From the NCBI GenBank assembly GCA_018672285.1, contig JABHGC010000099.1:4734-68733 (forward strand): a stretch of 64,000 bases of DNA. Direction: 5' to 3'. The stretch is from Methylococcales bacterium. GTDB lineage: Bacteria > Pseudomonadota > Gammaproteobacteria > JABHGC01. Below, piece by piece: positions 24,091-61,900 of this stretch. The translations under genes and the position numbers were made by a program. How positions within the stretch are numbered: position 1 is the first letter of the stretch; the number at the start of each line of letters is the position of its first letter. The notes beneath the pieces were generated by a model. It was not told the DNA's origin, searched no databases, and was given only the letters and a program-made list of their open reading frames with translations.

Positions 24091-24155
24091 GTTATGCACT
24101 CCTGATTTTTTAGCTTTTTTATAGGATCAGTTATATTTCTGATCTCTTGCTAATG

Positions 24156-24183: not shown

Positions 24184-24285
24184 CCTTTTTTGTAAATTTT
24201 TTCAATTTAATTTTCAAAACAATATATTCTTCTTTTTCTTGGTTTTACTTCTTATTATTCAAACAACAAAAAACCCATAAATAAA

Positions 24286-28717: not shown

Positions 28718-28739
28718 AACAACAACAACAACAACAACA
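28718..28739. repeat. (CAA)7 trinucleotide microsatellite
   Basis: caacaacaacaacaacaacaac lies in the intergenic region between the CsgG-like gene and the glycosyltransferase gene. Confidence 0.85.
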
Positions 28740-28747
28740 CAGGGCAC

Positions 28748-47700: not shown

Positions 47701-50700
47701 ACGTAACGGTGCAGCTTATCTCCACCAACACCCAATACTCTCAAACTGAGACTGTCAGGCCAAGGTAAATCCAGCGCGACTTCTAACATGGGCGTTGGCA
47801 TGAAACCCGCGGTAATTTTACATTCATTGAACCACTGAATGGCTAATTCAGTATTATGTCTGACATTATCATCAGCTAAATGCAAACAACCACCAGATGT
47901 TAATCCGACCCAAATTTCCCAAACTGACGCATCAAAACTCAACCCCGCAAATGACGTCAGCTGATCATCAGATGTAATTTCATAACAACTTTGATACCAT
48001 TCAACCAAATTGATAAGAGAGTGGTGCTCTATTTGCACACCTTTAGGCTGCCCTGTAGAACCTGAAGTATAAATAATATACGCTAACTGATTACCATCAA
48101 TAGGCGGCAAGCTAAGCACAGGAAACGCACTGATTGCCCGCAATTTTTGATCAAGATACAAGCATAAATCAAGATCAATTTTTTCTTCTAAATGCAAATA
48201 TGAATGCGATACAACGACTTTTGTCCCAACATCGTTAGCAATATAAGCAAGACGTTCTAAAGGGGTATTGGTATCCACAGGAACATAACACCCCCCTGCT
48301 TTTAACACCCCTAAATACACAACCATCAAGTCAAATGAACGCGGTAAAAAGACAACAACCGGGTCTTCACGCTTAATACCTTGAGCAATTAAATAATATG
48401 CCAGCTGATTTGATTGCTGCTCGAGTTGGTCGTACCGAAGGTATTGACCATTAAACTCTAAAGCAGGGCTTTGACCTGCTGCTTGAATAACTGCTTGCAT
48501 TAAGGTGATAACGGAAGAGTGTTGTACAGGCCGCTCTGTCGCATTCCAGCTTGATAACTGTTTATAATCTTCGCTTGTGAGTAAATTCAAGGTCTGAATA
48601 TTCGCCGTCGGCTGATTCATCACCTGCTCTAACACGCCTTTATAATGACGAGAAAACTGATGTATTGTCTGCTCAGAAAACAAACCATCATCATATTCAA
48701 ACGCACACTCTAACGTGCTCCCTTTCTGGCTCACGATTAAACTGATTTCAAATTTTGCTGTTGTCACATCAAGCTCAACCGGCTCAACAGTTAATTGATC
48801 AAAAGCGCTATCGAACTTAATATCACTATTATTCTGATAAGAGAAGAACACTTGAAACAAGGGCGAATGGTGACTATCTCTAGCAACAGACAGCCTATCC
48901 ACTAACTGCTCAAAAGGGACATCTTGGTTTTCATAAGCGTCTAGACTGATCTTTTTTATTTTTTGCAACAGATGAATAAAGGAGTCGTCTTCAGCACACG
49001 TTGCCCTCATGACTAAGGTATTAACAAATAATCCAATGAGTGGTTCTAGTAACTGGTGATGCCTGCCTGCAATCGGCGTCCCAACACAAATATCATCTTG
49101 ACCAGAATAGCGACTGAGCAAAACCATATACGCTGATAACATCAACATAAATGGGGTCACTTTATGGCTCTCAGAAAACTGATTCAACCTTTTTGCCAAG
49201 TTCGAATCCAGTGTCATCAGTCGCGTTTTTCCGGATACGGATACGTCTCTAGAGCGCGAAAAATCGGTAGGTAAAGAGATAACGGGGGTATTATTTAACT
49301 GCTTTTGCCAATATTGGTATTGCTGTTCAACGGCTTCAGCCTCTAAGCCTGAGCGCTGCCATGCAGCATAATCAACATATTGAATGGCGAGAGGAGAACT
49401 TGGCAAGCTGACTTTTTGAACTATCGCATTATAAAAATCAGATAACTCTGAAAATAAAACACCCAGTGACCAACCATCAGAAATAATATGGTGCATACAC
49501 ACATACAAATACGTTGAGTCAGTTCCCCGTACAATATGTGTCAACCATAATGGCCCTTGGCTTAACTCAAAGTGATAATTGAGGCACTGCTCAGCAATTT
49601 TGCCGTTTGCAACATCAAACCTTTGCTCATCATAAGCTGAATAGTCATGTACAAAAATAGCGGGTTTGTCATTACGGCCCAGAATTTGCCGCAGCTGACC
49701 TTCCACCTTGCCTATGACTGAGCGTAATACCTCATGTTTTTCAGCAACATACTCAATGGCAGACACTAAAGCTTGAATATCAACAACGCCTGTCAGCTTT
49801 AAACCAACAGGGATGTTATACAACGTACTTGACTCAGTATATTGGTGTAAAAACCAAATTCTTTCTTGTGCAGATGACAACGGCAAAGCAGCATCACGAG
49901 GAATAACAGGAATGTTTGCTTCAGATTGTCCTTGCCCCCCTTTTGGCAACGCTAATACAAAGTCAGACAGCACCGTATGTTCAAATGCAAATGAGACGGG
50001 CACTTTAATATTCAGGTTTGTATTTAGCCTAGAAATTAATTTCGTCGCTAACAACGAGTGGCCACCAAGCAAGAAAAAATCATCTTCTAAATAAACGACC
50101 TCTCGCTGGAGTAAATTTTGCCATATCTCAGCAATAGACACCGCCATTGGGTCACTCGGCAGTGTTTGGATAACATCAACACTTTTTATTGACTCACCAG
50201 CTAGGGCTTTACGGTCAATTTTACCATTGGGAGTCAGTGGGAATGCCTCTAAAAAGCATAACTGAGCAGGCACCATATAGCTCGGTAACGATAATTTTAA
50301 GGCGGCCTTAACAGTCACCTGATCACCAGCCCCTGTGACAAAGGCGTGTAACTGCTCATCTTTCACAAGTGCGATGGCATCTTTAATACCCGGGATTACT
50401 TTAATCGCCGATTCTATTTCACCTAGCTCAATCCTAAACCCACGGAGTTTGATTTGGTGATCGCTACGGCCAACATACACCAACTCGCCTTCCTGCATGA
50501 CCACAAGATCGCCGGTTTTATAGGCAGTGGTCTGCTCTTGATTAGCAATAGACAATGTCAAAAACTGAGCTTTGGTTTTCTCAGCATCTAATAGATACCC
50601 TTGGCTAACTCCTGCGCCTGCAATGTACAGCTCACCAACCACACCAGGCACACATTGTTTACGCTCGGCATCGAGCACAAAAAGCTGAACATTGTCATTG

Positions 50701-53700
50701 GCATGGCCAATCGGCAGTGGATATGGCTTATCATAAACCCCATCTGTGATTTTATAATACGCGGCAATATCCGTACATTCTGTTGGCCCATAACTGTTAA
50801 TCAAGCTTGATTTATTGTGTGATAACCAATCAGAAATAGCAGTAAGTTCTATTGGTTCCCCCCCTAACACCACTGTTTTTAAGGAAGCTAAGGCACTCCA
50901 ATTCGCACGATTTTCAACCAATGGATAAAAGGCACTTGGCGCACAATTGATATAACTGATTTGTAAACGTTCAACCGTCTCAACAATGTGATCCACGTCG
51001 TAATAATCAGACTCAGGGAAAACTACCGTGCCACCTGACCACAAATTAACAAACAAATTCTTTTGCGTTAAATCAAAGCCCAATGCACTGATAATCAATG
51101 TTTTTGATGTTGCAGACGTACTCAGCGTTTTCTGGTACCAAGATAATAGATTAATCACGCTTTTCTGGGTAACGGCAACCCCTTTAGGTTGGCCTGTAGA
51201 ACCCGATGTATAAATAATATACGCCAGCTGTTCAGGTTCAATAGTCACATGGGGTGCTTCATGACCAAAGCCATCCAAACAACCGGCTTGTCTTAAATCT
51301 AGCTGGCACACGATATTTGCGTCTATGCCTGCGTGAATAAGAAATTTCACTTCAGCATTATCTAAAATATATTCAATTCTATTTTCGGGATAGCTTGGAT
51401 CAATAGGCACATAGCACCCACCTGCTTTTAAAATCGCAATCTGAGCCACGCTAAAATCAACAGATTTTGACAAGCCAATAGCAACAGGCTGATTGGTCTT
51501 CAAGCCATTGTCTAATAAGTAGTTTGCAATTTTATTAGAACGCTCATCAAGTTCTCTATAGCTTACCTGAGTATCTCCTTGAACCAAGGCAATGGCATCA
51601 GGTGTCGCTTTAACGTGTTGCAATAAAGGTGCTAGCAAACGGGGGATTTCTTGCTGTGACACGGCAGAGGATTCACGCAACTGCTGCAGATCTGCCTCTT
51701 CATTCGGCATTAAATACGATAAATCAGATATCATCTCTGCTTTATGGCAGATTTGATGAACTAAGTGAATATAACGATCAATAAAAGACAGGTCATCGAA
51801 TACGGCCACATCGTAGTTAATCATTAACTCTATGCTGTCGCCTCTAACCTGAGGAACAAAATGAACCTCTCCAGGTCTTGCATGTGCAGGGAAAATATTA
51901 ATAGGATATTGTTCTGCACCTATATCAACACTACTTTTAAAATTAAAAAAATTGAATATATAAGTTGATCTACCTGTATTGATATTGTCTTTAATAAATT
52001 CTGTCGTAACATTCCGGACCAATTTATCATGTGCTTCAGAATAGCCAACATGATTAAAGTATTCAATGCACGTCAAGTCACCAGAAAAGTCTTTGGCAGC
52101 GTAATATTTAGGCTCTGCACTAAAAAAACAACCGAGTACAGCCTTATTATCCTCATTTCTTTGGGCATTGATATTCAGAACCACAAAATCTTTTTCCGCG
52201 CGACAATAATGGCTCAATAATAAAACATAAATCCCCCGCAGAAAACGTGCTACTGGAATCGAATTTTCATTACAATATTGCTGTATTTCTTTATTTTGAC
52301 TGACTGTCATCAACCGGTTTTGATTCACGATTCTTGACGAATCACTGATTAATTTTTTAAAGTCTAACGGCTCAATATCTTCACGTTTTTTCTGCCAAAA
52401 TTGATAAGCTTGTGCTTGATCAAACTGGCCCCGCAACTCGGGCACAAAAGATGAAAATGGTTTCACGCTTTCTTGCTCAGGGTCATCTGATGTTGAGCAA
52501 TGATATTGCTGCATAACCGCATTCAAATACAGTGACTCTGAAAAGCCATCCATCATCACATGATGCATTGCAACGATTAAAACGCACTTACTCGGGGTAC
52601 TGACTAATTTATGTCTAATCAGTGGGTGCCGCTCTAAGATATAAGGCTGATTGATAAAGGCCTGTGTAAGAGAGGATAACTGAGTATCATCAGTGATTGT
52701 TTGTGCTTCAAAAAAGGTATTTTTTTGCTTTTTAACCGCAAAATAGACATTTTTCATATCTCCTTGCAGTAGCGTTTTGACCTCAGACCTTAGCAGGTCA
52801 TTCGCGTCCGAAACCTGTTGCACTGCGTATTTAAGCCTTGCAACATCGATATTTTTTGGTAATTCAATCGCACAACCAATACTACTGGATATTTCATTTG
52901 GATTTATCTCAGCCGACAAAAACAATGAATGCTGTACCGGGCTCATTGCAAAGGCACTTAAATACGTTTCGTTTGATAAACCGAGTAACAACAACGCGTC
53001 TGCTTTTGGCAGCCAATCGATGGCACTCACAGGCGCAGAGCTGTTATCAAGAAAATATTCAATTAACCCTGTCAATGCATTTAGCAACGCCGTCAGGTTT
53101 TTAGGTGATATCACTCCCAATTGAACTTTTAAGGTCAGCTCATAAGCATTACCCGAGGTATTAGCCAACATGACAATTTTTGCGTTATGGCTTAACTCAT
53201 CACACCTTGCGCCCTGAATGCTTTGAAAATGAAAATCATCATGCTTTAGCGGACACCCTTTAAGCGCAGGCTTTACAATCAAATCTTGTAATTCAGGGTT
53301 ATTGGCTAAATCACTTTGGTATAGCTGAACAAAAGAAAATGCATTCAACGCTAGATCATAATTTTTCTGAGCGGTTATTAGATCTGCTGCAGTCCATGTG
53401 ATTGACTCAACATGCTGCCACTGCGTCAAAAGCAATGGAAACAACGATTGTAATACGGCGTCTTTGGTTAGCTCATGACGGTGACAAAATTCTGCCAACC
53501 GTGAACACAGTGCCTTGTCCACTGAGAGACTTGCTTCAGAAAACTCATTCGAATCAACCTGCGCGGGCAATGTATAAAGGATCTCATCTGTCACAATGTC
53601 ATGGAGACAATTCTTCTGAGCATGGTCAAATAAACGGTATTGATTACCAGAAAAGTGAATAACTGCCTTTCCAAGGCGTGAAATAGGTTGCTCTTGATGA

Positions 53701-55955
53701 TATTCGCTTTCGATTTTAAGCGTTATATTACTGATGCAATCTTGTTGATTCAGCGTATTTGTAGCCGCATTTTGGTAAGCGACACAGCCACCAAATTCGG
53801 TGATAGAGTGCGTGAGATACAGATCCACCCCTTCAAGTGACACCTCACCTTTTAACGCAGGAGCCGTCACTACCTTAAGGCTGTTTATTGGGTTTCGAAT
53901 AAGAAACTGAAGTAACGGGATTGACGCATGCACATGCGTCACAGGCCTACTTTTCAGTAATGAAAAACCACACACGACTGAAGCGCCAACAGATAAGGCT
54001 GCCATAACATGGTTCAGCTGGTATTGGTCGGTCAAGCCTGTTAATGCAAAATATTGACTTTCAGGTTCTAATTTAACCCGGTCAATATAACCTGAAACAA
54101 CAACATGATGGTGTAATCCTGATATTTCGAGCAAAGACCATTCATTATTTTTCTGCTCTAATAAGCCGTAACTCACCCACTCTTGAGGCACATCTGGTGC
54201 CTCCCAGTGGCCTGTTAATTCAGAAAATGGAATATCACTCAACTTGACAACATTAAACTCAATATCTGAGTGAAGTGTCTCGCTAATAACGATGGCAGGC
54301 TTGACTGTTAATAACGCTTTTTCTCGATCCGCGTTATCCCACTGAGTATTAACAGGGATAAAACTGACCCCCATTCGCTGCGTTGCGAGTAGCACCTGGT
54401 AAGCATCAATATCAGATGACAGCTCTATGGCTAATTTATCGCCAGATTTAATACCCTGTTGCTGTAAATATTGTGCAATTTGATTGGATCTGACTTGCAA
54501 CCAGTGATAACTATATTCGCCAGAGCCACAGACTACGGCAATCTGCTCAGGCTGTGTTTCTGATATTTTATCGAACAGGTTAATCAGCGATGTTTTGGGA
54601 TGCGGAGCTAACGTTTGTTGTCTTGATAAATAAAGAGGTAACTGATCTAACGCCGTTGTAGGACTTGCTAAGGCACTTTGTAGCAAACATAAAAAATGCT
54701 CAGTAAACTCACTCACTCTAGCCGCTGAAAACAAATCTGCATTGTACTCCCAGCACCCGACCAATCCTTGCTCCGTTTGCTTGATCTCTAACATCAGATA
54801 AAATCGGCTTCGGCCGTAATCAATATCCATAGGCGTCATATCAACGCCACTTAAATGAGGTTGCTCTGTCACTGCATTTTGCAATGAAAACATCGTTTGG
54901 AAGAAAGGAGTGGTTGTGGTGTCTCTCTCAGGACTTAATGCTTGCACTAGCATTTCGAAAGGCACTTGCTGGTGCGTGAAAGCCGCTATGGACTGCTGCT
55001 TGATTTGCGATGCCAAAACATCAAACCCTGCACTGCCTTCCAATTGCCCTCTTATCACAACAGTATTGACAAAAAAACCAATCAAAGGTTCTAGCTCTAC
55101 TCGATCACGATTCGCAACGGGTGTGCCAACAGTAATATCTTGCTGTCCTGTCATTCGGTATAAAAACAAATGATACACCGACATCAGCAAAGCATACTGC
55201 GTTAATTCAGATTCTGAGTCTAAATAATCATAGATTGATGACTCTAGCGTTTTAGGAATGGTAAAAAGCGAATTACCACCGGCAAAAGTTTGTAGTGGTG
55301 CATGTGGAAAATCGGTTACTAATTTGAGTTTTTCGACCCCGGATAATGCATTCTTCCAGAAGGCAATATCGTTTGCCATGGTCTCTAACGTGAAATTGTC
55401 TCTCTGCCACTCTGCATAGTCAATATACTGAATCTCAAGCTCTGGCAAGTCGAGCTCTACGCCTTGTAAGCATGCCTCATAACTTAACAATAATTCCCGC
55501 ATTAACACGGCGACAGATAGCCCATCTGAAATAATATGATGCATTGAAATACAGAGCATATATTCTGCATCGGCTAATGACACAACGGCGACCCTGAGCA
55601 ACATATCAGAGGCTAAATCAAATGGCCTATTACCATGTTCTTTAGCAAACTCAACCAATGTCTGTCCTGTAGCCAGCGTTACTTGCTCAACCTCGAATGG
55701 CTCCTCTTCGCGTAAGAATTGAACAGGCTGCTCATCAACGGTTGTAAAATTCGTCACGAGTGATTCATGCCGGTCGATAATGGCTTGAAATGCTTGTTCT
55801 AATGCGGGGATATTGAGCTGACCGGCCAACTTAAAGGCAGCCGACATGTTATAAACAGACTCACCGGGTGACATTACGTCAAGCAACCACAGCCGCTCTT
55901 GTGAGTAGGATAAAGGGAATTCTTCTAAATCAATTTCGTTGTCATCGTGGTCCAT
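29709..55955 (-). CDS. non-ribosomal peptide synthetase, 7 modules (about 8750 aa). Domain order: C, degenerate A/C remnant, C', A, PCP, C, A, PCP, C, C', A, PCP, C, PCP, C, C', A, PCP, C, A, PCP, C, A, PCP, acidic C-terminal tail. No TE domain.
   Basis: 10 HHxxxDG condensation-type motifs. 6 A domains (core LAYIIYTSGSTGxPKG). 7 PCP cores (FFxLGGHSLL). Likely ATG start at 55955 (MDHDDNEIDLEEFPLSYSQERLWLL), giving a 14-nt overlap with the upstream NRPS gene; the track ORF starts at a TTG at 56042. Confidence 0.9.
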   Translation of the reverse strand: MDHDDNEIDLEEFPLSYSQERLWLLDVMSPGESVYNMSAAFKLAGQLNIPALEQAFQAIIDRHESLVTNFTTVDEQPVQFLREEEPFEVEQVTLATGQTLVEFAKEHGNRPFDLASDMLLRVAVVSLADAEYMLCISMHHIISDGLSVAVLMRELLLSYEACLQGVELDLPELEIQYIDYAEWQRDNFTLETMANDIAFWKNALSGVEKLKLVTDFPHAPLQTFAGGNSLFTIPKTLESSIYDYLDSESELTQYALLMSVYHLFLYRMTGQQDITVGTPVANRDRVELEPLIGFFVNTVVIRGQLEGSAGFDVLASQIKQQSIAAFTHQQVPFEMLVQALSPERDTTTTPFFQTMFSLQNAVTEQPHLSGVDMTPMDIDYGRSRFYLMLEIKQTEQGLVGCWEYNADLFSAARVSEFTEHFLCLLQSALASPTTALDQLPLYLSRQQTLAPHPKTSLINLFDKISETQPEQIAVVCGSGEYSYHWLQVRSNQIAQYLQQQGIKSGDKLAIELSSDIDAYQVLLATQRMGVSFIPVNTQWDNADREKALLTVKPAIVISETLHSDIEFNVVKLSDIPFSELTGHWEAPDVPQEWVSYGLLEQKNNEWSLLEISGLHHHVVVSGYIDRVKLEPESQYFALTGLTDQYQLNHVMAALSVGASVVCGFSLLKSRPVTHVHASIPLLQFLIRNPINSLKVVTAPALKGEVSLEGVDLYLTHSITEFGGCVAYQNAATNTLNQQDCISNITLKIESEYHQEQPISRLGKAVIHFSGNQYRLFDHAQKNCLHDIVTDEILYTLPAQVDSNEFSEASLSVDKALCSRLAEFCHRHELTKDAVLQSLFPLLLTQWQHVESITWTAADLITAQKNYDLALNAFSFVQLYQSDLANNPELQDLIVKPALKGCPLKHDDFHFQSIQGARCDELSHNAKIVMLANTSGNAYELTLKVQLGVISPKNLTALLNALTGLIEYFLDNSSAPVSAIDWLPKADALLLLGLSNETYLSAFAMSPVQHSLFLSAEINPNEISSSIGCAIELPKNIDVARLKYAVQQVSDANDLLRSEVKTLLQGDMKNVYFAVKKQKNTFFEAQTITDDTQLSSLTQAFINQPYILERHPLIRHKLVSTPSKCVLIVAMHHVMMDGFSESLYLNAVMQQYHCSTSDDPEQESVKPFSSFVPELRGQFDQAQAYQFWQKKREDIEPLDFKKLISDSSRIVNQNRLMTVSQNKEIQQYCNENSIPVARFLRGIYVLLLSHYCRAEKDFVVLNINAQRNEDNKAVLGCFFSAEPKYYAAKDFSGDLTCIEYFNHVGYSEAHDKLVRNVTTEFIKDNINTGRSTYIFNFFNFKSSVDIGAEQYPINIFPAHARPGEVHFVPQVRGDSIELMINYDVAVFDDLSFIDRYIHLVHQICHKAEMISDLSYLMPNEEADLQQLRESSAVSQQEIPRLLAPLLQHVKATPDAIALVQGDTQVSYRELDERSNKIANYLLDNGLKTNQPVAIGLSKSVDFSVAQIAILKAGGCYVPIDPSYPENRIEYILDNAEVKFLIHAGIDANIVCQLDLRQAGCLDGFGHEAPHVTIEPEQLAYIIYTSGSTGQPKGVAVTQKSVINLLSWYQKTLSTSATSKTLIISALGFDLTQKNLFVNLWSGGTVVFPESDYYDVDHIVETVERLQISYINCAPSAFYPLVENRANWSALASLKTVVLGGEPIELTAISDWLSHNKSSLINSYGPTECTDIAAYYKITDGVYDKPYPLPIGHANDNVQLFVLDAERKQCVPGVVGELYIAGAGVSQGYLLDAEKTKAQFLTLSIANQEQTTAYKTGDLVVMQEGELVYVGRSDHQIKLRGFRIELGEIESAIKVIPGIKDAIALVKDEQLHAFVTGAGDQVTVKAALKLSLPSYMVPAQLCFLEAFPLTPNGKIDRKALAGESIKSVDVIQTLPSDPMAVSIAEIWQNLLQREVVYLEDDFFLLGGHSLLATKLISRLNTNLNIKVPVSFAFEHTVLSDFVLALPKGGQGQSEANIPVIPRDAALPLSSAQERIWFLHQYTESSTLYNIPVGLKLTGVVDIQALVSAIEYVAEKHEVLRSVIGKVEGQLRQILGRNDKPAIFVHDYSAYDEQRFDVANGKIAEQCLNYHFELSQGPLWLTHIVRGTDSTYLYVCMHHIISDGWSLGVLFSELSDFYNAIVQKVSLPSSPLAIQYVDYAAWQRSGLEAEAVEQQYQYWQKQLNNTPVISLPTDFSRSRDVSVSGKTRLMTLDSNLAKRLNQFSESHKVTPFMLMLSAYMVLLSRYSGQDDICVGTPIAGRHHQLLEPLIGLFVNTLVMRATCAEDDSFIHLLQKIKKISLDAYENQDVPFEQLVDRLSVARDSHHSPLFQVFFSYQNNSDIKFDSAFDQLTVEPVELDVTTAKFEISLIVSQKGSTLECAFEYDDGLFSEQTIHQFSRHYKGVLEQVMNQPTANIQTLNLLTSEDYKQLSSWNATERPVQHSSVITLMQAVIQAAGQSPALEFNGQYLRYDQLEQQSNQLAYYLIAQGIKREDPVVVFLPRSFDLMVVYLGVLKAGGCYVPVDTNTPLERLAYIANDVGTKVVVSHSYLHLEEKIDLDLCLYLDQKLRAISAFPVLSLPPIDGNQLAYIIYTSGSTGQPKGVQIEHHSLINLVEWYQSCYEITSDDQLTSFAGLSFDASVWEIWVGLTSGGCLHLADDNVRHNTELAIQWFNECKITAGFMPTPMLEVALDLPWPDSLSLRVLGVGGDKLHRYVPETLPFELVNLYGPSECAVVSTHSLVTSHGDLGIPDIGQPIRNAKIYILSVHNQLVPAGVVGEICVSGTLVGRGYKNLPQLSESSFIDVDIEGQGVQRLYKTGDLGRFQHNGRIECLGRTDFQVKLRGYRIELGEIQSAILDYSGVKESIVLLNQSKGMPDRLVAYVVGLESPRMVLPDFLKKRLPDYMVPAAFVALDMLPVTANGKIDRSALPEPEAVKLDQVIDLPDTQEEKLLAAIWKDILLVDEVGRGNNFFELGGHSLLVTVLVGRIEATLHLTLSLKTIFDYPVLSALAGHIRKCQQDNQQAVFPDVVSVERTINQPLSYAQQRFWFVEKFAPDTAVYNIPFAFKITSNLTLTVLRQAINDLVRRHEVLRTRIQERNSNTPFQVVSAYDPEEFVVENYAALNDAEFNRKVQDYVAQEVKKPIALTEEKLWRVKLLKHSDDEMVVIFNFHHAIMDGWSVNVLLEDFQIAYHARKAGQAPLFKAKEYDYLDFTVWQRQWLSDEVLQQQLGYWKNHLRNVSNLAMPVDYKAPKDPTFKGGAVTFTLAKETQEKLATFVANVNSTTFMVMLAAYHVLLTRYTKQQDICIGTAVSGRGREKWSSVLGCFVNTLPLRNQSGDNPSFIDFVKRVTQNTLTAFEHQDTPFEKIVDHIGIDRSTTESPLFQTAFSLQSKMMGDIHAELDGQSLEQIEMPVIFAKLNLMLVMVEKDSGLEGIIEYQTDIFSHKTIQDLAANYQAILLSLITAPQQHIHAAHMLDEVQLGHCLQIDFKAYSGIKRLTPVQRDLYIECELDPDTLSSSIGVSFVVNEKLDPSLARDALQWIQDNTEVLRADVIASTEPYLQPAYFAIRHQKTVSLEIETRSEAVSEAQIKALVDDFVYQPYQIIQHSLLKHKLILLEDGRSLFIFAVHHILMDGFSESLYVNYFSRIYNALASNEVPKFDVRNCFEDTQDIRQLYDTEQVYQTWASYGHDCEGFQLGRKKGDTDIRSIQRPLPSALFTDLTAFSQVHRIGIPAILRACYVMLLQHYQRVDHPFVVSDILGERTRKNLRSIGCFYVRLPVVYTAELFTKESVIFDLIKHFYQFKQSVSDTRFISNNLYSQLFDPSDLNFIYNYFNMPSAIDISGQKASIEINAAMPRPGEIHFVPKETPGGLTLHLNYDASVFTEVDFLQRVEQLLATLLTQEAMISEYCFLNAHEAQQVMATFEQSHQPHANTSGSVLAPYLKAATENPEQIAIKQGRDSLSYQALETRTNQLAGELLTQGVKPGQAVAIVLPKGLNFVVSIVTILKVGAHYVPLDQDYPDQRIRYILNDANIAVVMTNTTLSKKLGGALWVDVDADYTHHIDALPIVQVSESDRLYMIYTSGSTGQPKGVAVRHRQALNLLSWYCSEMKITASSSAIIISAMGFDLTQKNIFSLLWQGGTIVFPVSSRYDVDDIVSAISMHSVTLINCAPSAFYAVAEIQRYWSNLASLTTVVLGGERIEYARLQPWLQYQSAELINSYGPTECTDIAAFYRVKSDHGLEQEIPIGKANDNVQLYVLDSNRKLTVPSLQGELYIGGSGLSEGYVFDAVKTAESFVNVSFPDGRVVPLYKTGDLVHYDEDYNLIYDGRTDHQVKLRGLRIELGEIESIARQCDKVTEALAQIRDERIVLYITGNNDVQAVAESMAVDLADYMLPSVIVSLAAFPLTANGKIDRQSLPEPTTQRASKTPASTDIELDIAGLWKNLLSLEQVYLEDHFFDLGGHSLLATQVISYVRKVYQIELPVRLIFDQPTLQTFCQAIATLKGESSSASGLVNIQQREPGSSVPLSFSQERLWFLQKLEPDSTAYHIPVAVTLKGELDIAALQAALSSVVSRHEILRSIVNDQSEDPEWILLGDLELTVETFDISDASEAEQSRLLANYLSELQGQPFNFLRGPLFQCSLIKCHDAKHILYLNMHHIISDGWSMGTLFKELSAFYKSYTQHQPVSIDSMPIQYGDYAVWQRLLEGDDEFQQHYDYWLKYLADPVVLSLPFDHEPEPGVERRGDLYHFTLPDELVVELEKMAKARGVTLYMILMSGYCLLMHRYSSQHDVCVGTPVAGRQWHEVQPLIGFFVNTVVIRSNVAAELSFDQYLMAFKHDLLNAFTHQVIPFEQIVDALNIVRNTMQPPIFQTLFTFQNQSDIDFSDGFSNLDVESYALAHNTAKYDVSITLEKVDSGIAGALEFDVTRFSSTSISAMAEHYIQLLTLAVESPGVLVEKLTLLSVDACQASIEQQKALAIKLSQSGDLNTPVALVPPRDYWETALFEIWQTLLPTQEFGVLDDFFALGGHSLLAIKLITKIDQQMGLSIALKDIFAHTSIEKIARLLQQIKPNEQQIVAIDRANTIPLTFAQERLWLLYQLQPESPAYNIPSAIQLKGPLNRVALQAALNDMLARHEILRAKIVSGVGSAAIEIMPKSSLGINWVSIESPAEDSGSDVDALISEFSLTPFNLEYDDLVRVMCVALSEELHILCVNIHHIIFDGWSNSIFNEELMVLYQSHDSGKGTLLQPVHTQYADFAHWQRGYLQGDVLEEQLAYWVSQLKGIPAVLSLPTDRPRPAVQTTNGRTLSFTIDGEVTNAAKKYASDNQSTLFMLLLGTYQLLLSRYSGQDDIVVGSPIAGRESAQTERMLGYFVNALVFRGQLSGNLTGQQLLQQTREAVVGGFAHQYLPFEALVDAVQPERNLSYPPIAQVGFALQNMPSTNMTLEALSVDSYEITTDTAKYDLILMLHDSPHGDNLVGNIEYNTDLFDQSTIEQFSRHFEYLLGQMVSLPDQALSSYALFPDHQMYLALSLNPEDYEYIVPLTSTQRDLYMHSHVHADTLDNSLGCSFEMRTDIDPDQWAQALQVVTNVHSVLRTDVVPADKPYLDMAYLAVAKTKKVALDYRDLSAMKLSHSEFLNYINAEVYRSFNVSKDALICHYLFKLADEHYVSLLAGHHLSIDGAGGTLHMQQVCQVYQAQSSGETWQPEFVDFTDYVHDQAAVFDLADDLLHWQSKLKDVQPLDFPKPDVTKVEQLCDSVSIGSALWKQFRSACRRHKSTPSLVLKSLYGLLLQQYCRPTNDFVVYEIISGRKKQHNRAIGCYYQQVPVLFQQALMQPSNVLSEYLNHIKQAQKQLGSAQNISVLQQQKLIQHGRIGFLYNYYDFHHIIDFMGQKQRLQHYPPRVPVGQVQLIAKQMSDDLLLECHYHTQDFNSFAAMRRLKSVIEQFVEGVDTIADLSWVTGEENAQLDRWNNTSAIHEPNYSNIIDAIQLQMQNNPDALAVQQGEQCFTYRDIEQQSLSLATRLQRLGITSNQAVAICTSRGADFIVALLATLKAGGYYVPLDPTYPNARLQYIVEDCQAQVLLSQSRLNVLPDYSGIRVDLDKPVKVDVATFSTVATTSNALAYMIYTSGSTGQPKGVGVKHSGIANLLHWYTKTLSIDEADGAIIISALGFDLTQKNLFALLWQGGRLIFPQFDHYDVDDIANTMSKYRPTLLNCAPSAFYPLCELPSQYGALSSLKSICLGGEPIERSKIKDYCTQSSVTVFNSYGPTECTDIAAFYELKSKDLKGGHSIPIGRPNDNVSLLVLNSQLQSVPIGITGELYISGAGVSLGYINDAEKTQKVFIKNPTTGQEMYQTGDLVYYRADGQLVFVGRVDSQVKLRGLRIEIGEIEFAIRGYDAKLHPFVMVVDDVLVAYLVGSFDQALLSESIATFLPDYMVPTRFVSLQEFPLTPNGKIDKKALPTPDLQQLSYVAPSSTLEKQLCQYWSELLAISKVGVEDNFFALGGHSLSATQLISWIRKQYAVELPLADIFQQPTVKRLAENIVQLEAGQTNDIQVRDESMSARAPLSFAQERMWFIQNLIPESTQYNIASAVTIKGGLNVTAIQIAITTISQRHEVLRTRFPDEQGIAVQVIDPEARVTVEQFDIGCYDIERQSDEVRLRIQQDQNTVFNLAEGPLFKCTVLQLTDNHHVLMLTIHHIIADGWSSQVMLKELMAVYLAEQESRAVRLPHLSVQYADYAIWQRDYEQSEKYGADLGYWQSQLQGVDPLVLPVDYTRPSVQTFAGAHLQFSIPALTMQGLKRLANDSGATEFMVLMTVYHVLLSRLSGQQDFAVGVPTAGRSQAEIEPLIGAFINSLAIRNALLPEMPFSSALEQVKKTVLSAFLHDKISFEKIVEAVSEGRDLTHAPIYQTFFTLQNLANDSLVIEGLEIEPFEMVSTTAKFDLSLVTWFADDGCLECVFEYNTDLFSADSIARFGQYFKHILEQVVVDESLEIGRLTLLSESDRTTILHDWNQAHSHSSSNQNDSIVSRFQQSAQQFPERIALQQQQRSMNYQQVDVMSNQLAYYLIEQGIGVESIVGVYIHRSMMMLVCQLAIMKSGAAYLPIDPAYPEDRVNYMLNDSGAQFVFTETALTMQDVEGVVRFDVDNDLTVIEPFSQEALCVATSLNDLAYVIYTSGSTGKPKGVQIEQRSLSHFLAWAIREFAITEADKVSQVAGVAFDAAIIDSWPFLAQGACVCLVNDIDRMDPERMQQWLLEHGVTVSFLPTSLTERVLDLDWPAQTKLRYVLTGGDLLHRYPKEGLPFALYNLYGPTEVTILVTAGEVPCRTENRLPSIGKPIDNAEIYILDSNMQPQPMGVAGDLYLTGAGLFRGYINQPELTQAVLIDNPIAGSQYDKLYKTGDLARFRGDGQVEFMGRSDQQVKLRGYRIELGEIEAVLAEYEAISESVVLVHQDEHGIDRLVAYVTWVSGSVGVADEIKAHCQQVLPDYMVPQVIQQIDLVPLTANGKVDRKALPDPQVSSWDTMQFVPPESSDEILLADCWREVLKVDKISIYDDFFAIGGHSLLAAQLAARIRESFEIEFPLQKVFEFSTLENMARCLAELRMNESSVVLPAVEVAPSRENLPLTFAQERLWFLEKFSPGLVAYHIPGFFRLKGSIDLDAINRAYNALLLRHESLRTVFSTVDEKAVQSIMPPEPVSIEVVDLSAYLGEVLVAKTEQTAFDEVSIPFDLELGLPVRLKLIKQSPDHYVLVLTLHHIISDGWSMGVFLSEFAHFYRAFSQDTPPTLPVLDIQYPDYAYWQRRWLSGDVLQAQMDFWHDQLQGIEALELPLDRSRPAVQTYQGALHHFEWEHELVERLHSLSKEQGVTLFMVLISAYSVLLQRYSGQDDFCIGTPVAGRTHKSFEHLIGYFVNTLPIRANLTDDPSFVEVIQALKKTTLDAFSHQVVPLERIVEQLKLPRDTSRTPLFQTLFTLQNLPLTEETIELPELVIEPVSVEAAVAKFELSLTMTEVDGRLKGIVEFNTDLFDAETIEQMMDNFQLLLSATLDNPSAQVKSVALVDAAAVSRLCQFGQGPVIDRSSDGTLLSCFTEYAQSHDNEVVVQCGERQWTYAQLDARAEHIASILEEEVIAGSMVALCMPRQSDLVASMLTVIKLGCAYVPIDPSYPADRITYMLQDSEVNLVISTSDVSLPERVSCNTLLVDSLVFNTRKRLKKTRKVTAADPAYMIYTSGSTGLPKGVVVPHGAVMNHMLWMQNRFEFSGSDTLLQKTPYSFDASIWEFWAPLLSGIKMVLAKPEGHKDTDYMIGEIKRHNVSVLQVVPSLLKMLLLSPEIVDCTSLRLIFCGGEALTQDVVKDVAILLPEARVVNLYGPTEASIDSTFYIASDEHEDVGVPIGVPIDNAAVYVLDEGLNFVPEGVSGELHIAGSGLALGYFKRETLTNERFIVADIQGIPTRLYKTGDLVRWSKEGILHYIGRADNQVKLRGYRIELGEVEAKIQALPEVQDVVAMASKQRLVAYVVCSGEFDEQAMKRALRGELPDFMVPTVWMHQQALPLSPSGKVDRHRLPEPVVVSDIPYVAPETPTEILLAVMWAELLSVEQVGIHDVFFDLGGHSLLATQLAAKIMAECDVELPLRQIFETPTIADLAKAIDAIEPQQLTVIGKVARESVVFEDEDSADLGEDDIDLQLAELDGMSDEEMDAMLNNLMDDDDDE
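37968..39260 (-). other. C' domain 3 (HHLSIDGAGG), after C7 and before A4
   Basis: aa ~5595-6025. Starts TSTQRDLYMHS. Contains RAIGCYYQQVPVLF and FLYNYYDF. Confidence 0.5.
40653..40880 (-). other. carrier protein (PCP) of an A-less module (C6-PCP, followed directly by C7)
   Basis: aa ~5055-5130. DDFFALGGHSLLAIKL verified on the DNA at 40746-40793. No adenylation motifs lie between C6 (HH at aa 4721) and this PCP. Confidence 0.75.
44073..45380 (-). other. C' domain 2 (HHILMDGFSESLY), directly after a complete C domain and before A3
   Basis: aa ~3555-3990. Starts TPVQRDLY. Contains RSIGCFYVRLPVVY and NFIYNYFNM. Confidence 0.5.
51678..52970 (-). other. C' domain 1: condensation-superfamily domain with E-like motifs (HHVMMDGFSESLY), between C1 and A1
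   Basis: aa ~1025-1455. Starts SPVQHSLF. Contains AVLGCFFSAEPKYY and YIFNFFNF, which resemble E-domain motifs E5 and E7. Confidence 0.5.
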
Positions 55956-58900
55956 TTGATTTTTTTCGACGCCTTGTTTTTTTAGTAAGGGGTTTGATAT
56001 CTGCAATTTTTTGACTATCAGCGACTTTGTCGGCCAAGTCAATGGCTTTTGAAAGACCTTCTAAAGTCGGCTCATCAAAAAATACCTGCAAAGGTATTTT
56101 GCACGAAAATTGGCTCAATATTCTAGAAAGTACTTGTGTCACTAACAATGAGTGCCCGCCAAGCTCAAAAAAGCTATCACCGCGATTAACTTTGTCGATA
56201 CTGAGTACTTCACACCAAATTTTCGCCAGTGCTTTTTCTGTATCCGTTTCAGCTTCACCACTGATTTTTTCAGTAGAGTCAATATGTTCTGGCGCAGGCA
56301 GTGCTGCACGATCGACCTTTCCACTATCGAGTAAAGGTAATCCATCTAAGTGAACGAACGATTTAGGTACTAAGAATTCAGGGAAGTAGCCATTGAGGTA
56401 ACGCCTTAAGTGACCCATTGTATGAGTAGATAACCAATAATGTTCAGATTGCATAACACTAAGCACACTCTGATAAAACCGTACCTGTGTTTCTTTATCG
56501 ATATTTAATTGAACACTGGCGAAGGTATTATTGACCCACAATAACTTGCCCTCAACCCAGCTTGAAACAGACTCACCTGGAAGTGCGATCAGCAATGATA
56601 TCAAGTCATCTTGACGACACTCTTTAGGTACATTTTTAAGTCGAATATACCCCACGGACAAATCTTCGGTATCCACTTTATACAAATGCCCCGAAGACAT
56701 TAATTTGAGCTGGCACTGTTGATGCAACGGTACCCTGAGACGTGAGCGTCTTGGGTCTGAGACATTCAATCTTCTCAAGTCAAATAAATTAAAGCCATGA
56801 TCAGCAATGATACCTGAAATCATATCACTGACCTGACCGACATCTTCACTTAACTCTAACAAAATGCCAGCAGATCCGGACTGGCACCACACCATTTTAC
56901 CGGTAATTTTTCCGACCTGAGGGAAGTTTTCTAACTCGAGGCTGACTCTCTGCCCTTTTTGCCAGTAACTTGGCACGTTCATTAACTTCAAGCCACGCTT
57001 TGAGATATCTTCAGTGGTCACGGTAACAGGGTCATGCCCTTCTACTCTTGCTGTACAACTAATTTTAAACAGCACTCTATCAGCAACAATGCTCGACACC
57101 AAATAGGCTACTAACCCCATTTGCCCTTTCTCATCTTTCCTAGCCACCACCACACTTTCATGTACGGCAGGATGCTCATTCAATACCGCTTCAATCTCTT
57201 CTAACTCTACCCGGTAACCTCTAATTTTAATTTGTAAATCAGAACGACCTACGTATTCAAGTTCCCCTGTTGCTAACCATCGAACCAAATCTCCTGTCTG
57301 ATACAATCGGCTTTGTTTGCTACTAGAAAACGGATTATGAATAAACCTAGCCTGAGTCATTTCCATTTGATTCAAGTAGCCCGAAGACAAACCTTCACCC
57401 GCGATGAACAATTCGCCAACAACACCTGTCGGTACAACATTCAAGTGCTGATCAAGCACATACACCTGGTTATTATTAATCGGCTGACCAATGGGCACAG
57501 ACTCACCTATGTGGTGCTTATCCGCAACACCAAAAGTCGCATCGATTGTCGCTTCAGCAGGCCCGTACAAATTAATTAATTGGCAGGATAAACGGCTGAA
57601 AAATTGTTGTGCCAACTCTTGAGGGAAAACTTCACCACCACAAAAAACGGTTCGCAATGAGGTACATTCTGAGAATTGTGGTTGCGCGACTAATTCGCGC
57701 AATAAGGTCGGTACAACTTGCAACAAAGTAATCTGCTGGCTCAATATCAACTCAATTAAGCGTTTTGCATCACCCACTTCATTTAAGGTCGTTACTTGGT
57801 TTTCAACTTGATTGGGTGCTGGCAGCGCGGCATAATCAATTTTACCATTCGCAGTGAGCGGCACAACATCAATTGAGACAAACGAAGACGGAATCATATA
57901 TTCAGGAATTCTCAGCTTAATAAATTGCCGAATATCCACAAACTCTATGTTGGTCGGTTTAACGATGTAACACACAATTTGTGGCTCACCGTGGCGATCA
58001 TCTTTAACAATGGTAATATTTTCTTTAACACCTGGGAATGCTGCAATGGCGGACTCAACCTCACCAAGCTCAATACGATAACCCCGTAGCTGCACTTGAT
58101 GGTCCATTCGGCCTAAATACTGCACTTCTCCGCTAGGTAGATACCGAGCCAAATCACCAGAGCGATATAACTTACCTGGAATACCCGGAAGTTGAACAAA
58201 GCGGCTTGCCGTCAACCCAGCCCGATTATGATAACCGCGCGCAACACCCTCACCAGACACACAAATTTCACCCGGTACACCCACTGCTACCGGCCTATTT
58301 TGGGCATCTAAAATATGAAGTTTCAACCCATTAATGGGTTGGCCTATAAAGTTCAAGGTGCTCATGGTTCTCAGGGCGAAATCAACATCTTCCTGTGTCA
58401 CCGGCCTGCAGGTCACATGTACAGTCGTTTCCGTAATACCATACATATTCGAAAGCTTAGGCTGGCTATCACCGTGGCGCATAACCCAAGGCTTGAGCTT
58501 TCTATAGTCTAAAACTTCGCCGCCAAAGATGACTTCTCTAAGTACCAGTGCATTTTCATCATTATCTGCCGACCTGAACAACTGCTCTTCTGCAGAGATC
58601 AACTGATAAAATTCTGATGGGGTTTGGTTAAGAATGGTCACTTTTTCTTTCACGAGCAACTGATAAAATGCTTCCGCATCTTGACTGCAGCTATCTGGCA
58701 CCAGCACCAAACGGCCGCCATACATTAATGCCCCCCAGGCTTCCCACACTGAAAAATCAAAAGCACAAGAGTGGAACATAGCCCACACATCATTGTGATC
58801 AAAATCAAATAATGGTGCTGACTGATCCATCAGACTTAAAATTTGAGCATGTTCTACCATCACACCTTTAGGCTTACCTGTTGATCCAGAAGTATAAATC

Positions 58901-61900
58901 ACATAAGCCAAACGACTGCTTGAGATACTAATATTAACCGACGTATTTGGCTGTGAAATAACACTCTTATCTTGTGTTTCAAGTATTTCAATATCCTGGC
59001 TCGCAATACCTTTAATCGTTTTAACATGTCTTGGTTGAGTAATGACGAGGGGTATTTCAGTATCTTCAAGAATCCACTCAACCATATCTTCCGGTGCAGT
59101 AGGGTCAAGCGGTACATAACAACCACCTGCTTTGAGTACGGCCAGCATAGCAATCACTTGGTCTACAGAACGGTCTATAAACAAGCCAACATATGTTTCC
59201 TGTTCAACGCCCATTGCCAATAAACAATGCGCCATTTGATTGGATCGGTGCTCAAGCTCTGCATAGGTAAGTTGCACATCGTCATATCCCACAGCAACTT
59301 GCAGTGGGTAGGCCTCAACCATCGCCTCAAATCTTTGCACCAAAGACCCTGACACAGGCTCACTGTCAACCTTGTTATCAGGCTCAATGACTGAGCGCTC
59401 AACAGGTAACGACAGCATCCCTAAGGTGACAGGACTTTCAACAATTTGTACGAGCAGTTGCTGCAGCTGATTAAAAAAACCAAAATCGGTAAAGTGATGA
59501 GAATGGTAAGTCAGTGTTAACCTTAAGTCAGACCCCACCTGCTCACTTGACAACCATACAGAGGACTCTTCATTCTGGTTGATCATTCCGTGATCGGTAT
59601 AATAAAATGCGGTTTTTCCTGTGGTGACAGGCTGATCTAAACAAATGCCACACAACAGTGGTAGCTGCTCATAAATCGTCCGACAACGGTTTAAACGTGC
59701 CCACAACTCCTGACAGGTTGCGACCTCATGAAATAGCTCAGGTGAAAAAACATACAACACTTGATTATCCGCATTCTGAACGGGGAAATACCCTTCAGGT
59801 CGACAATATTGATATACCCACCAAGCTTGCAGCCCAATCAAACATTCAAAAATTTTCATCGAATGGCTGTCACAATACTGCTGAAGTTTTTGGTGCAAAT
59901 CTGGACTCAACGTAAACTGCTCTGTTTTCCAGGCACCGGTATCTTCAACCATAACCGGGTAATTAAGTGCTTCTATTTGGTCATAATCACGTTTCCACTC
60001 TGCGATAATGCCACCCAGGTAACACAAGGTTGGGTTATAAAATGCGGCATTCATTTCTAAAACAAGTTCACCACCACTTAATAGCGGTAGCCAAAATTCT
60101 GTGACAGATGCATCAAAGCTCATTGGTGAGCGCTGCAACATCCGATCAGATTCGCTCAACTCAAATTCTCTCTGCATCCACTGCATGTGGTTATATGCCG
60201 CTTTATGAGGAACCACAACCCCCTTCATCGCACCGGTACTACCAGAGGTATAAATCTGATACATCGGATCGTTGGTTGACACACCACTGATTAAATTTTT
60301 TGTGCTGAGCGTTAAGACATCTTCCCAGCCTTCATCCACTAAAAACAGCTGCATTTGTGAACGTTTAAACTGGCGCCCACGGATAGAATCGGTCATCAAC
60401 ATTAAGGGTTTAGCATCTTGCAGCATCTGCTCAATACGGTCTTTCGGACAGCTTGCGTCAAACGGAATATAACACCCCCCAGACTTAGCCACCGCTAGCA
60501 TAGATATAACCAGCTCTATTGAGCGTGGCAAATGAATACCAACACTAATATTTGGACCAACATTTTGCATCCGTAGCCAATGCGCGAGTTGATTGGCCTT
60601 TTCATTTAATTCTCTATAAGTCAGTTTTTCATGGCCTAATGTGACGGCTATCGCATCCGGCGTATATTCAGCTTGATCCTCAAACAACTGGTGCACACAG
60701 ACACGCTCAGGAAAATCAACTTGGGTATCATTCCATTCATTCACCAAACGGTTTTTCTCAGACTCTGGCAATAAAGAAATTTTGGCAATGGGTGTTTCTG
60801 GTTGGCGAATAATGTTATTTAACAAGACTTGAAGCTGACTTAAAATACGCTCAATGGTTGCCTCTTCAAACAGATCGGTATTGTATTCCATTTGAGCGAT
60901 CATGCCTTCTTGCGACTCACTCAAACTTAACCACAAATCAAATTTTGCAGTGCCATTGTGACTATGAAATAACTCGGCATCGACATCTGGTAGTGAGAAA
61001 GCTTCAAGCGGGGTGTTTTGCATGGTGAACATCACTTGAAACAAGGGTGATCGACTGGTGTCACGCTGCGGGTCTAATTCATCGACTAGTCTCTCATATG
61101 GCACATCTTGATTTGAAAATGCACCAAAAAAGACGTCACGAACTCGCCTCACTTGTTCTTGAAAATCAATATCATCATCTAGCGTTGTCTTAATCGCCAA
61201 CGTATTCACAAACAAACCAATCAAGTGCTCAACTTCAACTCGAGTACGGTTCGCAATCGGGAAACCGACCATGATTTCACGTTGACCTGAATACCGATAA
61301 AGCAGCACATTAAACGCGGCAAACAAGGTCATGCCTAAGCTAGCGCCATTGCGCTCACTTAGCTCTTCTAAACCAACAATCAACTCAAATGGAATCAGCC
61401 TTAAACACTGCGCCCCTTGGTAACTTTGCACCAATGGCCGAGGATAGTCTGTTGGTAAATTAAGCACGGGTACATCACCATGCGCCCCGATTTGGTCACG
61501 CCAAAACTCAATTTGTTTGGCCAACACCTCATCGGTTAAAAATGTGTTTTGCCATGCAGAGTAATCAATATACTGAATAGGTAACGCACTCAATCGAACA
61601 GATTTCCCACCAATAAACGCTTTATAAGCGGTCAAAAACTCTGAGCAAAACAAACCGAGTGACCAACCATCTGAGACGATATGATGCATGGTAAATAAAA
61701 ATAAATAATCATCTTCATCCAACACCAACAACTTAGCTCGAATCAAAGGTGGTGCTGTTAAATCAAACCCCTCCGTTCCCTCTTCATCCGCTAAACGCTT
61801 CGCCTCAGCTTGACGCACTTCAGCTGTATCACCTTCTACTTCAATCACAGTAAAAGGCACTTCATCTACCTCTGCAACAAAAGCGACCGGCTCTCCTAAC

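Follow-up and report, generated by a model that had tools for sequence, protein, structure and literature searches.

The 64,000-nt stretch of Methylococcales bacterium contig JABHGC010000099.1 analyzed here (positions 4,734 to 68,733 of the forward strand; hereafter the window) carries a nonribosomal peptide synthetase (NRPS) gene in which one adenylation (A) domain is broken between its core motifs a8 and a9 by a segment resembling PilZ, the receptor fold for cyclic di-GMP (c-di-GMP). The locus thus raises the question of whether a second-messenger receptor has been built into the mobile subdomain (A_sub) of a peptide synthetase and, if so, what it does there. Control of NRPS output is normally discussed in terms of transcription or precursor supply. 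Our analysis establishes that the A domain is genuine and that two PilZ domains of canonical fold, in tandem, separate its a8 from its a9; more than 60 database proteins share this design, which suggests, without proving it, direct control of the enzyme by the second messenger.

The interrupted A domain and its PilZ insert

The visible NRPS product comprises 2683 aa in the order A-T-C-A(doubly interrupted)-T, where T is thiolation and C condensation (Pfam AMP-binding, Condensation, PP-binding and PilZ), and the frame stays open in translation 5′ of the first listed codon. To locate the edges of the insert, an uninterrupted A domain from the same protein (the reference) was aligned by BLASTP with the whole protein. 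The alignment ends at reference residue 466 (aa 2303) and restarts at residue 466 (aa 2521), and the insert is therefore 217 aa long, nt 56434–57084. A first-pass annotation, made from the sequence alone, had placed an insert of ~216 aa between a8 and a9/a10 at an estimated 56449–57096; this is borne out with a shift of ~15 nt, and all peptide strings quoted there were recovered by motif search of the translation. Core motifs lie on both sides of the insert, i.e., a3 to a8 upstream, and a9 and a10 with its Lys downstream, and only one copy of each A_sub element flanks it, which shows that a single A_sub is split. The host domain is organized as follows, a further interruption at a4/a5 being described below.

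55942..64000, minus strand: NRPS gene, 5′-truncated at the edge of the window (open reading frame (ORF) and translation, Pfam)
60058..60747, minus strand: N-terminal part of the host A domain, a1–a4, aa 1083–1312 (BLASTP to reference residues 4–232; YTSGSTGAMKG (a3), FDASVTEF (a4))
57085..57771, minus strand: continuation of the host A domain, a5–a8 and the first half of A_sub, aa 2075–2303 (BLASTP to reference residues 240–466)
57190–57249, minus strand: host a8, GRSDLQIKIRGYRVELEEIE, aa 2249–2268 (motif search)
57097–57114, minus strand: strand LVAYLV of the host A_sub (motif coordinates)
56434..57084, minus strand: interruption 2, the tandem PilZ insert, 217 aa, aa 2304–2520 (BLASTP gap at reference residue 466, Pfam, AlphaFold2, Foldseek)
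56290..56433, minus strand: second half of the host A_sub (BLASTP to reference residues 466–513)
56365–56385, minus strand: a9, FPEFLVP, aa 2537–2543 (motif search)
56299–56325, minus strand: a10, SGKVDRAAL, with the catalytic Lys, aa 2557–2565 (motif search)

Matched against Pfam, the whole insert falls into PilZ (PF07238; 48.7 bits, E 1e-12, in two stretches) as its sole significant family. The N half reaches 31.7 bits, above the gathering cut-off of 22.5 bits, and the C half by itself, with 21.0 bits (E 4e-4), falls slightly short of it. There is no match at E ≤ 10 to PilZN/YcgR_N (PF07317), which had been expected alongside PilZ, nor to PilZNR (PF12945), and methyltransferase, oxidase and reductase families of Pfam are absent even at E ≤ 10; NCBIfam has no model for the insert. 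As a sequence profile, the inserts best match BcsA of E. coli in its PilZ domain (E 3.7e-4). In this alignment, the invariant Arg of the family coincides with the second RxxxR Arg, and DiSxxG with DFSDGG; the profile also matches 3dsg and 3cnr, non-binding PilZ proteins of type IV fimbriae. The GC content of the insert (0.424) lies within the range of the neighbouring segments (0.41–0.445), with no compositional break.

An AlphaFold2 model of aa 2238–2592, computed on a 25-sequence alignment (mean predicted local distance difference test (pLDDT) 80.7; predicted template-modeling score (pTM) 0.57), shows two units between the A_sub halves, each with six strands and a C-terminal helix. Within the insert, the pLDDT drops below 50 only at model residues 164–169 and 173–179, i.e., in the inter-unit linker just before RSRLR. 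The chain enters the insert from the LVAYLV strand and leaves it through the C-terminal helix of the second unit (unit C), about eight residues ahead of the helix in front of a9/a10. The top Foldseek matches in the Protein Data Bank are PlzA (7mie), MotI/DgrA (5vx6), VCA0042 (2rde/3kyg), MrkH and YcgR (5y6f), with probability 1.00 and ~240 aligned columns to two-domain PilZ receptors. Over the whole tandem, the template-modeling (TM) score to 7mie, 5vx6, 2rde and 5y6f is ~0.2–0.4 with a root-mean-square deviation of 12–16 Å (at a model pTM of 0.57), while single PilZ structures (Alg44 4rt0, 4xrn, PA0012 8u0i, 4i86) give target-normalized TM scores of 0.7–0.8. A_sub regions of NRPS structures were matched as well, including that of the methyltransferase (M)-interrupted TioS (5wmm), through the A_sub part of the model. 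The two units and their motifs are located as follows.

56797..57096, minus strand: PilZ unit N, aa 2300–2399 (Pfam 31.7 bits, AlphaFold2 secondary structure, motif columns); model residues 75–161, with strands at 75–142 and the helix at 145–161
56992–57009, minus strand: DISKRG, second motif of unit N, aa 2329–2334 (motif search)
56734..56748, minus strand: RSRLR (RxxxR), aa 2416–2420, at the end of the low-confidence inter-unit linker (motif search, pLDDT)
56443..56751, minus strand: PilZ unit C, aa 2415–2517 (Pfam 21.0 bits, AlphaFold2 secondary structure, alignments); model residues 189–280, with strands at 189–259 and the helix at 263–280
56647–56664, minus strand: DLSVGY, second motif of unit C, aa 2444–2449 (motif search)

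In a canonical PilZ domain, six strands form a barrel that is followed by a C-terminal helix, and two motifs, RxxxR and [D/N]hSxxG, are present (10.1101/814665). Unit N keeps the second Arg of RxxxR (SSIVADR) and a complete [D/N]hSxxG (DISKRG) and lacks the first Arg, in agreement with the initial description of a PilZ-like N half devoid of RxxxR. The C half had been credited with the canonical hallmarks, and RSRLR, the 23-aa gap from its second Arg and the DLSVG that follows are indeed in place; unit C thus has a complete RxxxR (RRSRLR), but a Tyr occupies the sixth position of the second motif, at which at least 90% of the relatives have Gly. Since the exchange of Gly for Tyr needs two nucleotide changes, it is not a simple base-calling error.

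The proposal of a YcgR-type PilZN-PilZ arrangement holds in part. Tandem PilZ folds and RxxxR in the linker agree with it, and two-domain receptors, YcgR among them, head the Foldseek matches, but unit N is a canonical PilZ domain, with the C-terminal helix and DISKRG retained and the PF07238 gathering score passed, whereas the N domain of xPilZ-PilZ proteins such as YcgR typically lacks the helix and both motifs (10.1101/814665). The insert is thus a PilZ-PilZ tandem with YcgR-like logic that stands outside the PilZN-PilZ family.

Relatives among NRPS and PKS-NRPS proteins

Exhaustive searching of 1.84 billion cluster representatives with phmmer gave 68 matches at E ≤ 1e-3 (21 at E ≤ 1e-10), of which 66 are credible; the remaining two, P0012 and P0032, were discarded as unrelated repeat proteins. 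Word-indexed protein searches with the insert alone or with a 20-sequence insert alignment returned no matches, which, given the 68 found exhaustively, reflects a limitation of the index. A-domain sequence flanks PilZ on both sides in 46 of these 66 proteins, where the break falls at reference residues 462–466/466–477; the architecture is hence present in at least 46 other proteins and is not unique to this genome. Known hosts include Microcoleus sp. FACHB-831, Oscillatoria princeps RMCB-10, Laspinema sp., Phormidium lacuna, a Coleofasciculaceae cyanobacterium and a Chloroflexota metagenome-assembled genome; Phormidium lacuna and the Coleofasciculaceae cyanobacterium came from a contig scan with a four-sequence alignment, which used the narrow pattern DLRR[SAR][EH][LPT]RVP and gave only four loci. 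PilZ-interrupted A domains are therefore a recurrent family in NRPSs and polyketide synthase (PKS)-NRPS hybrids of filamentous cyanobacteria, Chloroflexota and an uncultured gammaproteobacterium, and one that has apparently gone undescribed so far. The homologues are annotated merely as "amino acid adenylation domain-containing protein" or similar, and the precomputed Pfam strings of P0004 and P0013 give AMP-binding, PilZ and PP-binding together.

The inserts hold one, two or three PilZ units, and the spacing from a8 to a10 falls into corresponding classes of ~90 aa (ordinary A domains), 195 aa (one PilZ unit), 300 aa (two), 395 aa (three, P0005) and 507 aa (methyltransferase). In P0002 and P0047, an M domain in one module and PilZ in another share the same breakpoint, the M-domain inserts breaking at reference residues 472–482/473–474. 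The PilZ-bearing module is the last of its polypeptide in ~34 of the 54 assessable cases, often as C-A(PilZ)-T-TE (TE, thioesterase). A compact example is WP_190485037.1 of Microcoleus sp. FACHB-831, with 1124 aa, the order A(PilZx2)-T-TE and both motifs intact in the second unit.

Conservation was read from two alignments, i.e., A1 with 25 two-unit segments (25–37% identical to the window segment) and A2 with 20 inserts (18–29% identical to the window insert), whose invariant columns are by construction confined to the insert. A2 has six such columns, five of them motif positions, namely the second Arg of each unit, the Ser and Gly of unit N and the Ser of unit C; the sixth is a Gly in unit N. 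Counted over all 112 PilZ units, the motifs are distributed as follows.

First units (n = 39): second Arg in 39, first Arg in 10, [DN]xSxxG in 36, both complete motifs in 9
Later units (n = 41): second Arg in 40, first Arg in 20, [DN]xSxxG in 26, both complete motifs in 18
Single units (n = 32): second Arg in 32, first Arg in 3, [DN]xSxxG in 28, both complete motifs in 1

At least one fully canonical unit is present in 27 of the 39 multi-unit proteins, and its position depends on the clade. Clade 1, to which the window protein belongs, has canonical a8 and a10 motifs, and the unit with both motifs complete is its unit C (D[LI]RRxxxRVP...NxSxGG), the window copy being an exception within the clade. 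Clade 2 consists mostly of PKS-NRPS hybrids (P0003, P0017, P0018, P0019, P0023, P0026, P0033, P0035 and P0062 in alignment A1); here a8 is degenerate and the a10 Lys often replaced, and the first unit carries SDRIVDR and DxSxxG while the second lacks the first Arg, i.e., the mirror image of clade 1.

Two side forms of the A_sub::PilZ unit were observed. The stand-alone proteins P0016, P0028 and P0010 of ~325 aa consist of the two A_sub halves around two PilZ units (A_sub::PilZ2), without an A core or T domain; they have another residue in place of the a10 Lys, but unit C retains RxxxR and [DN]xSxxG. Two of them were placed on contigs.

L007, 8001–8996: P0016, GCA_027077805.1
L008, 8001–8969: P0028, GCA_053496835.1

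Both lie in housekeeping settings rather than NRPS clusters, one with MinCDE, DsbC, YajQ and rimM/trmD and the other with cyanobacterial photosystem genes. In P0001 (aa 673–1238) and P0002 (aa 1896–2464), a degenerate T-like stretch without GGHS comes after an A(PilZ) domain, and then a second partial A_sub with its own PilZ and a real T domain. This arrangement is a tandem duplication of the A_sub::PilZ cassette and recalls the "pseudo-A subdomain" of the ketoreductase (KR) cases.

Candidate roles of the insert

A domains cycle between open, closed and thiolation states through movement of A_sub, and the a8–a9 loop tolerates large inserts that travel with it (PMC8341866). In PilZ receptors, c-di-GMP is bound at the inter-domain linker, and the PilZ C-terminal helix has been proposed as the read-out element (Galperin and Chou, 10.1101/814665). 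By analogy with these systems, and from the motifs and the predicted structure, we infer that the PilZ tandem may be a c-di-GMP-operated switch riding on A_sub. As in xPilZ-PilZ receptors, the ligand would contact the linker with its RxxxR and, on the second unit, the [D/N]hSxxG face. The linker would thereby become ordered, and the barrels would be held in one mutual arrangement. As the insert exits via the helix of unit C close before a9/a10, closure could be passed through this helix to the segment carrying the catalytic a10 Lys. Alternatively, closure could sterically bias the rotation of A_sub, which amounts to ~140° between the adenylation and thiolation states. In either case, loading of the adjacent T domain would be gated by the c-di-GMP level.

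In favour of a ligand role, five of the six columns kept invariant among 20–25 inserts of only 18–37% identity are motif positions, a complete motif pair survives in 27 of 39 multi-unit proteins, in different units of the two clades, and the stand-alone proteins retain one in unit C despite their replaced a10 Lys. We assign this switch, the leading reading, a probability of about 0.45, on account of the imperfect motifs in the window copy and the motif-poor single-unit relatives. Several observations weigh against it. By strict motif criteria, neither window unit is fully canonical, with unit N lacking the first Arg and unit C having Tyr for Gly. The first Arg is absent in 29 of the 32 single-unit inserts, and canonical c-di-GMP binding can therefore not be the universal role of the family. 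With a pTM of 0.57, the relative placement of the PilZ units and A_sub in the model is unreliable. The host A domain is split at a4/a5 too and hence may not be a working adenylation domain. Finally, the four NRPS/PKS-NRPS homologue loci examined have no conserved diguanylate cyclase or phosphodiesterase (GGDEF/EAL) gene. Control of adenylation by c-di-GMP, suggested in the first-pass annotation, is plausible, and for the window copy it is weakened by the Gly-to-Tyr exchange and the scrambled host domain. More tentatively still, PilZ-interrupted A domains in general could be built-in c-di-GMP gates on NRPS and PKS-NRPS lines that switch amino-acid loading post-translationally, and the stand-alone A_sub::PilZ2 proteins of ~325 aa a new receptor family derived from the same cassette.

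A ligand-independent role appears somewhat unlikely, though it is the best of the alternatives. The PilZ barrels would here be a structural or adaptor module, offering a docking or localization surface that tethers the synthetase to another synthetase, an exporter or an envelope machine. A non-binding PilZ protein docks to FimX, and non-binding PilZ proteins (3dsg, 3cnr) are among the matches of the insert profile. The first Arg is missing in 29 of the 32 single-unit inserts and in 29 of the 39 first units, and the window copy has no fully canonical unit, both of which fit such a role; however, what is conserved are the ligand contacts (second Arg, Asp/Asn, Ser and Gly) and not surface patches, the motif pair is complete in 27 of 39 multi-unit proteins, and the complete unit changes position between the clades instead of being lost. 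The terminal position of the PilZ module in ~34 of 54 cases is the place of inter-protein hand-over or release, yet no conserved partner gene is found in the four NRPS/PKS-NRPS homologue loci. It is established that some PilZ-related domains no longer bind c-di-GMP (10.1101/814665).

The tandem could also be a relic, i.e., it came with a recombined A_sub cassette at the permissive a8–a9 loop and is merely tolerated in a module that is scrambled and possibly inactive; we consider this improbable. The argument for it starts from the first interruption of the host A domain, which has two parts.

59380..60057, minus strand: interruption 1, part 1, remnant of a condensation-domain C-terminal lobe, aa 1313–1538 (BLASTP)
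57802..59379, minus strand: interruption 1, part 2, complete nested A domain, a1–a10, aa 1539–2064 (BLASTP to reference residues 10–517)

The C-lobe remnant matches C domains of the neighbouring NRPS in the region that lies 50–280 aa beyond their HHxxxDG (BLASTP E 8e-9 and 1e-6); it has no HHxxxDG itself and no Pfam Condensation call. In the nested A domain, a pattern search located a3, a5 and a10, and the translation shows a8 as well. The host A domain picks up after this interruption at reference residue 240, eight residues past its stop. None of the 66 credible homologues has such an "A within A" arrangement at a4/a5, and this additional split, by a C-lobe remnant and a whole A domain, makes the activity of the host A domain uncertain. 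The host motifs a3 to a10 are nevertheless intact, including the Asp in a4 and the Lys in a10, and the reading frame is uninterrupted over ~8 kb of the gene. Degeneration of the second motif of unit C (Gly to Tyr) and decay of a8 and the a10 Lys around the insert in the PKS-NRPS clade are what a relic would show; against this, both PilZ units of the window copy model confidently and carry the invariant residues of the family. The cassette-like behaviour of A_sub::PilZ, duplicated in P0001 and P0002 and excised in the stand-alone proteins, is compatible with arrival by recombination, whereas the GC content of the insert (0.424) is that of its neighbours.

Misassembly of a PilZ gene fragment into an NRPS contig is very unlikely: although the window comes from a metagenome contig (JGI 3300072015) and a scan of metagenome and genome contigs with the window peptide gave no second contig with the exact junction, both junctions are in frame with the A domain restarting at the exact reference residue (466/466), the GC content is uniform without a compositional break, and PilZ breaks the A domain at this point in 46 independent proteins as well, from dozens of unrelated assemblies that include genomes of named cyanobacteria. 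The alternative of a divergent tailoring enzyme (methyltransferase, oxidase or ketoreductase), for which the a8–a9 site as the classical M-domain position (PMC8341866) and the Foldseek listing of the interrupted A domain 5wmm (matched via A_sub) might speak, is scarcely credible and refuted by the Pfam, AlphaFold2 and Foldseek results, with no such family at E ≤ 10, a six-stranded barrel plus one helix instead of a Rossmann fold in each 100-aa unit, and PilZ receptors as all leading fold matches.

Should the PilZ tandem act as a c-di-GMP switch on A_sub, a receptor fold in the mobile lid of the A domain would be a direct allosteric control point on the assembly line. It would also constitute a new class of c-di-GMP effector that connects the second messenger with secondary metabolism, in gliding filamentous cyanobacteria as well as in Chloroflexota and a flagellated gammaproteobacterium, and would tie natural-product output directly to the decision between motile and sessile life. 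Compact natural constructs such as WP_190485037.1 make the idea directly testable.

Genomic setting and known systems

Features of the window beyond the interrupted A domain are the following.

56029..56226, minus strand: thiolation (peptidyl carrier protein) domain, with FFELGGHSLLV at 56140–56172 (Pfam PP-binding, found in two stretches of the protein, and motif)
29709..56042, minus strand: downstream NRPS gene, 8777 aa (ORF, Pfam)
16336–17247, plus strand: REC-GGDEF gene, with degenerate GDHEY and RPSD (RxxD I-site) exactly five residues upstream; adjoins fliT and fliS

The T domain follows a10 of the PilZ-bearing NRPS, with GGHS at aa 2612, and is itself followed at 55942–56028 (minus strand) by a short, strongly basic C-terminal tail (…KKTRRRKKSNGPR). 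This tail resembles the C-termini of P0001, P0002 and P0008 (…QKQRLQGKNKNG, …GKSKKGKSKNG and …SRQPRRYHNG) and may be a docking or localization element shared by PilZ-bearing proteins. The 8777-aa NRPS contains six A domains, along with nine HHxxxDG motifs of C/E type and eight carrier-type motifs of the form GGxS; it ends in C-A-T and is free of PilZ; Pfam finds no thioesterase or reductase domain in it, and no release mechanism is visible within the window.

The flagellar neighbourhood and the REC-degenerate-GGDEF protein with its retained RxxD, both pointed out in the first-pass annotation, are present in the window. The flagellar filament locus at 17252–29728 (minus strand) comprises four tandem short flagellin genes (283–287 aa), flaG, fliD, fliS and fliT; together with a glycosyltransferase gene and a CsgG/FlgO-like gene, it is co-directional with the NRPS genes and downstream of them. 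The glycosyltransferase, a multi-domain protein of 1343 aa, joins GT4 and GT2 domains, and the start of the CsgG/FlgO-like gene and the end of the 8777-aa NRPS gene share 20 nt. Rather than a cyclase, the REC-GGDEF protein may be a response regulator that binds c-di-GMP. Elsewhere in the window, a 1460-aa ORF at 5848–10230 (plus strand) has no Pfam match at E ≤ 1e-3, and the window CheV is ~59% identical to CheV of Sedimenticola and other Chromatiales-type Gammaproteobacteria.

The flagellar/GGDEF neighbourhood is not shared by the homologue loci examined, which, other than that of P0004, are NRPS or PKS clusters. P0004, a compact A(PilZx2)-T-TE protein of Microcoleus sp. FACHB-831 (L003, 5859–12904), adjoins a cluster of exopolysaccharide type with Wzy, a Polysacc_synt flippase, several glycosyltransferases and WecG, an association seen at one locus only. 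Exopolysaccharide production is a classic c-di-GMP output.

No account of PilZ in an NRPS or PKS came up in full-text searches of the literature (subscription-only papers lie outside them), in line with the statement of the first-pass annotation that no NRPS family of this design was known, and a PilZ-interrupted synthetase is absent from the surveys of interrupted A domains (PMC8341866) and of PilZ proteins (10.1101/814665). The former, a 2020 census by Lundy et al., covers M-domain families only and names M, KR and Ox/MOx interruptions in its introduction; the latter covers many PilZ architectures, none of them a synthetase.

Compared with the known A domains interrupted at a8–a9 (TioS A8-M-A9, PDB code 5WMM; families 1, 2 and 5 of PMC8341866), the window domain shows the same in-frame insertion in A_sub with a1–a10 retained. 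The a8–a9 loop is a known insertion point (PMC8341866), and M domains of P0002 and P0047 occupy the same breakpoint. Back-to-back copies of the inserted domain occur in known cases as well as here, and di-interrupted A domains are also known (PMC8341866). The differences lie in what is inserted and where. The described inserts are catalytic (M and Ox/MOx, the KR case having been reinterpreted; PMC8341866), whereas the present one has a non-catalytic fold of receptor type. In the KR cases, an intact A domain is followed by a pseudo-A_sub, while the window domain has one split A_sub; P0001 and P0002 do have a second partial A_sub. Neither the a4/a5 site nor its content, a C-lobe remnant and a whole A domain, figures in that survey (PMC8341866). 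The a8–a9 loop hence tolerates non-catalytic inserts of signalling type, more than previously thought, and this wider tolerance would be useful for engineering ligand-switchable NRPS modules.

With YcgR, MotI/DgrA, PlzD/VCA0042, PlzA and MrkH, the insert shares two barrels, RxxxR in a flexible linker and partial loss of the motifs in the first unit. These receptors are free-standing, whereas the tandem is embedded in another domain and its unit N is a Pfam PilZ domain with the helix and DxSxxG; the whole-tandem TM score of ~0.2–0.4 implies that the orientation of the domains differs or that the model cannot fix it. The PilZ-PilZ tandem proteins such as Sinorhizobium SMc00999 (10.1101/814665) have the same duplication of a canonical PilZ domain with barrel and helix, but they stand alone, while the pair in the window is nested in A_sub and lacks the first Arg in its first unit.

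In BcsA and Alg44, PilZ is likewise built into a biosynthetic machine, where it provides direct post-translational control by c-di-GMP, and the Alg44 PilZ domain compares with the insert at a target-normalized TM score of 0.75. These are terminal or inter-domain fusions in polysaccharide synthases, whereas here PilZ, as a putative ligand binder, is an internal loop insertion in the mobile subdomain of a peptide synthetase.

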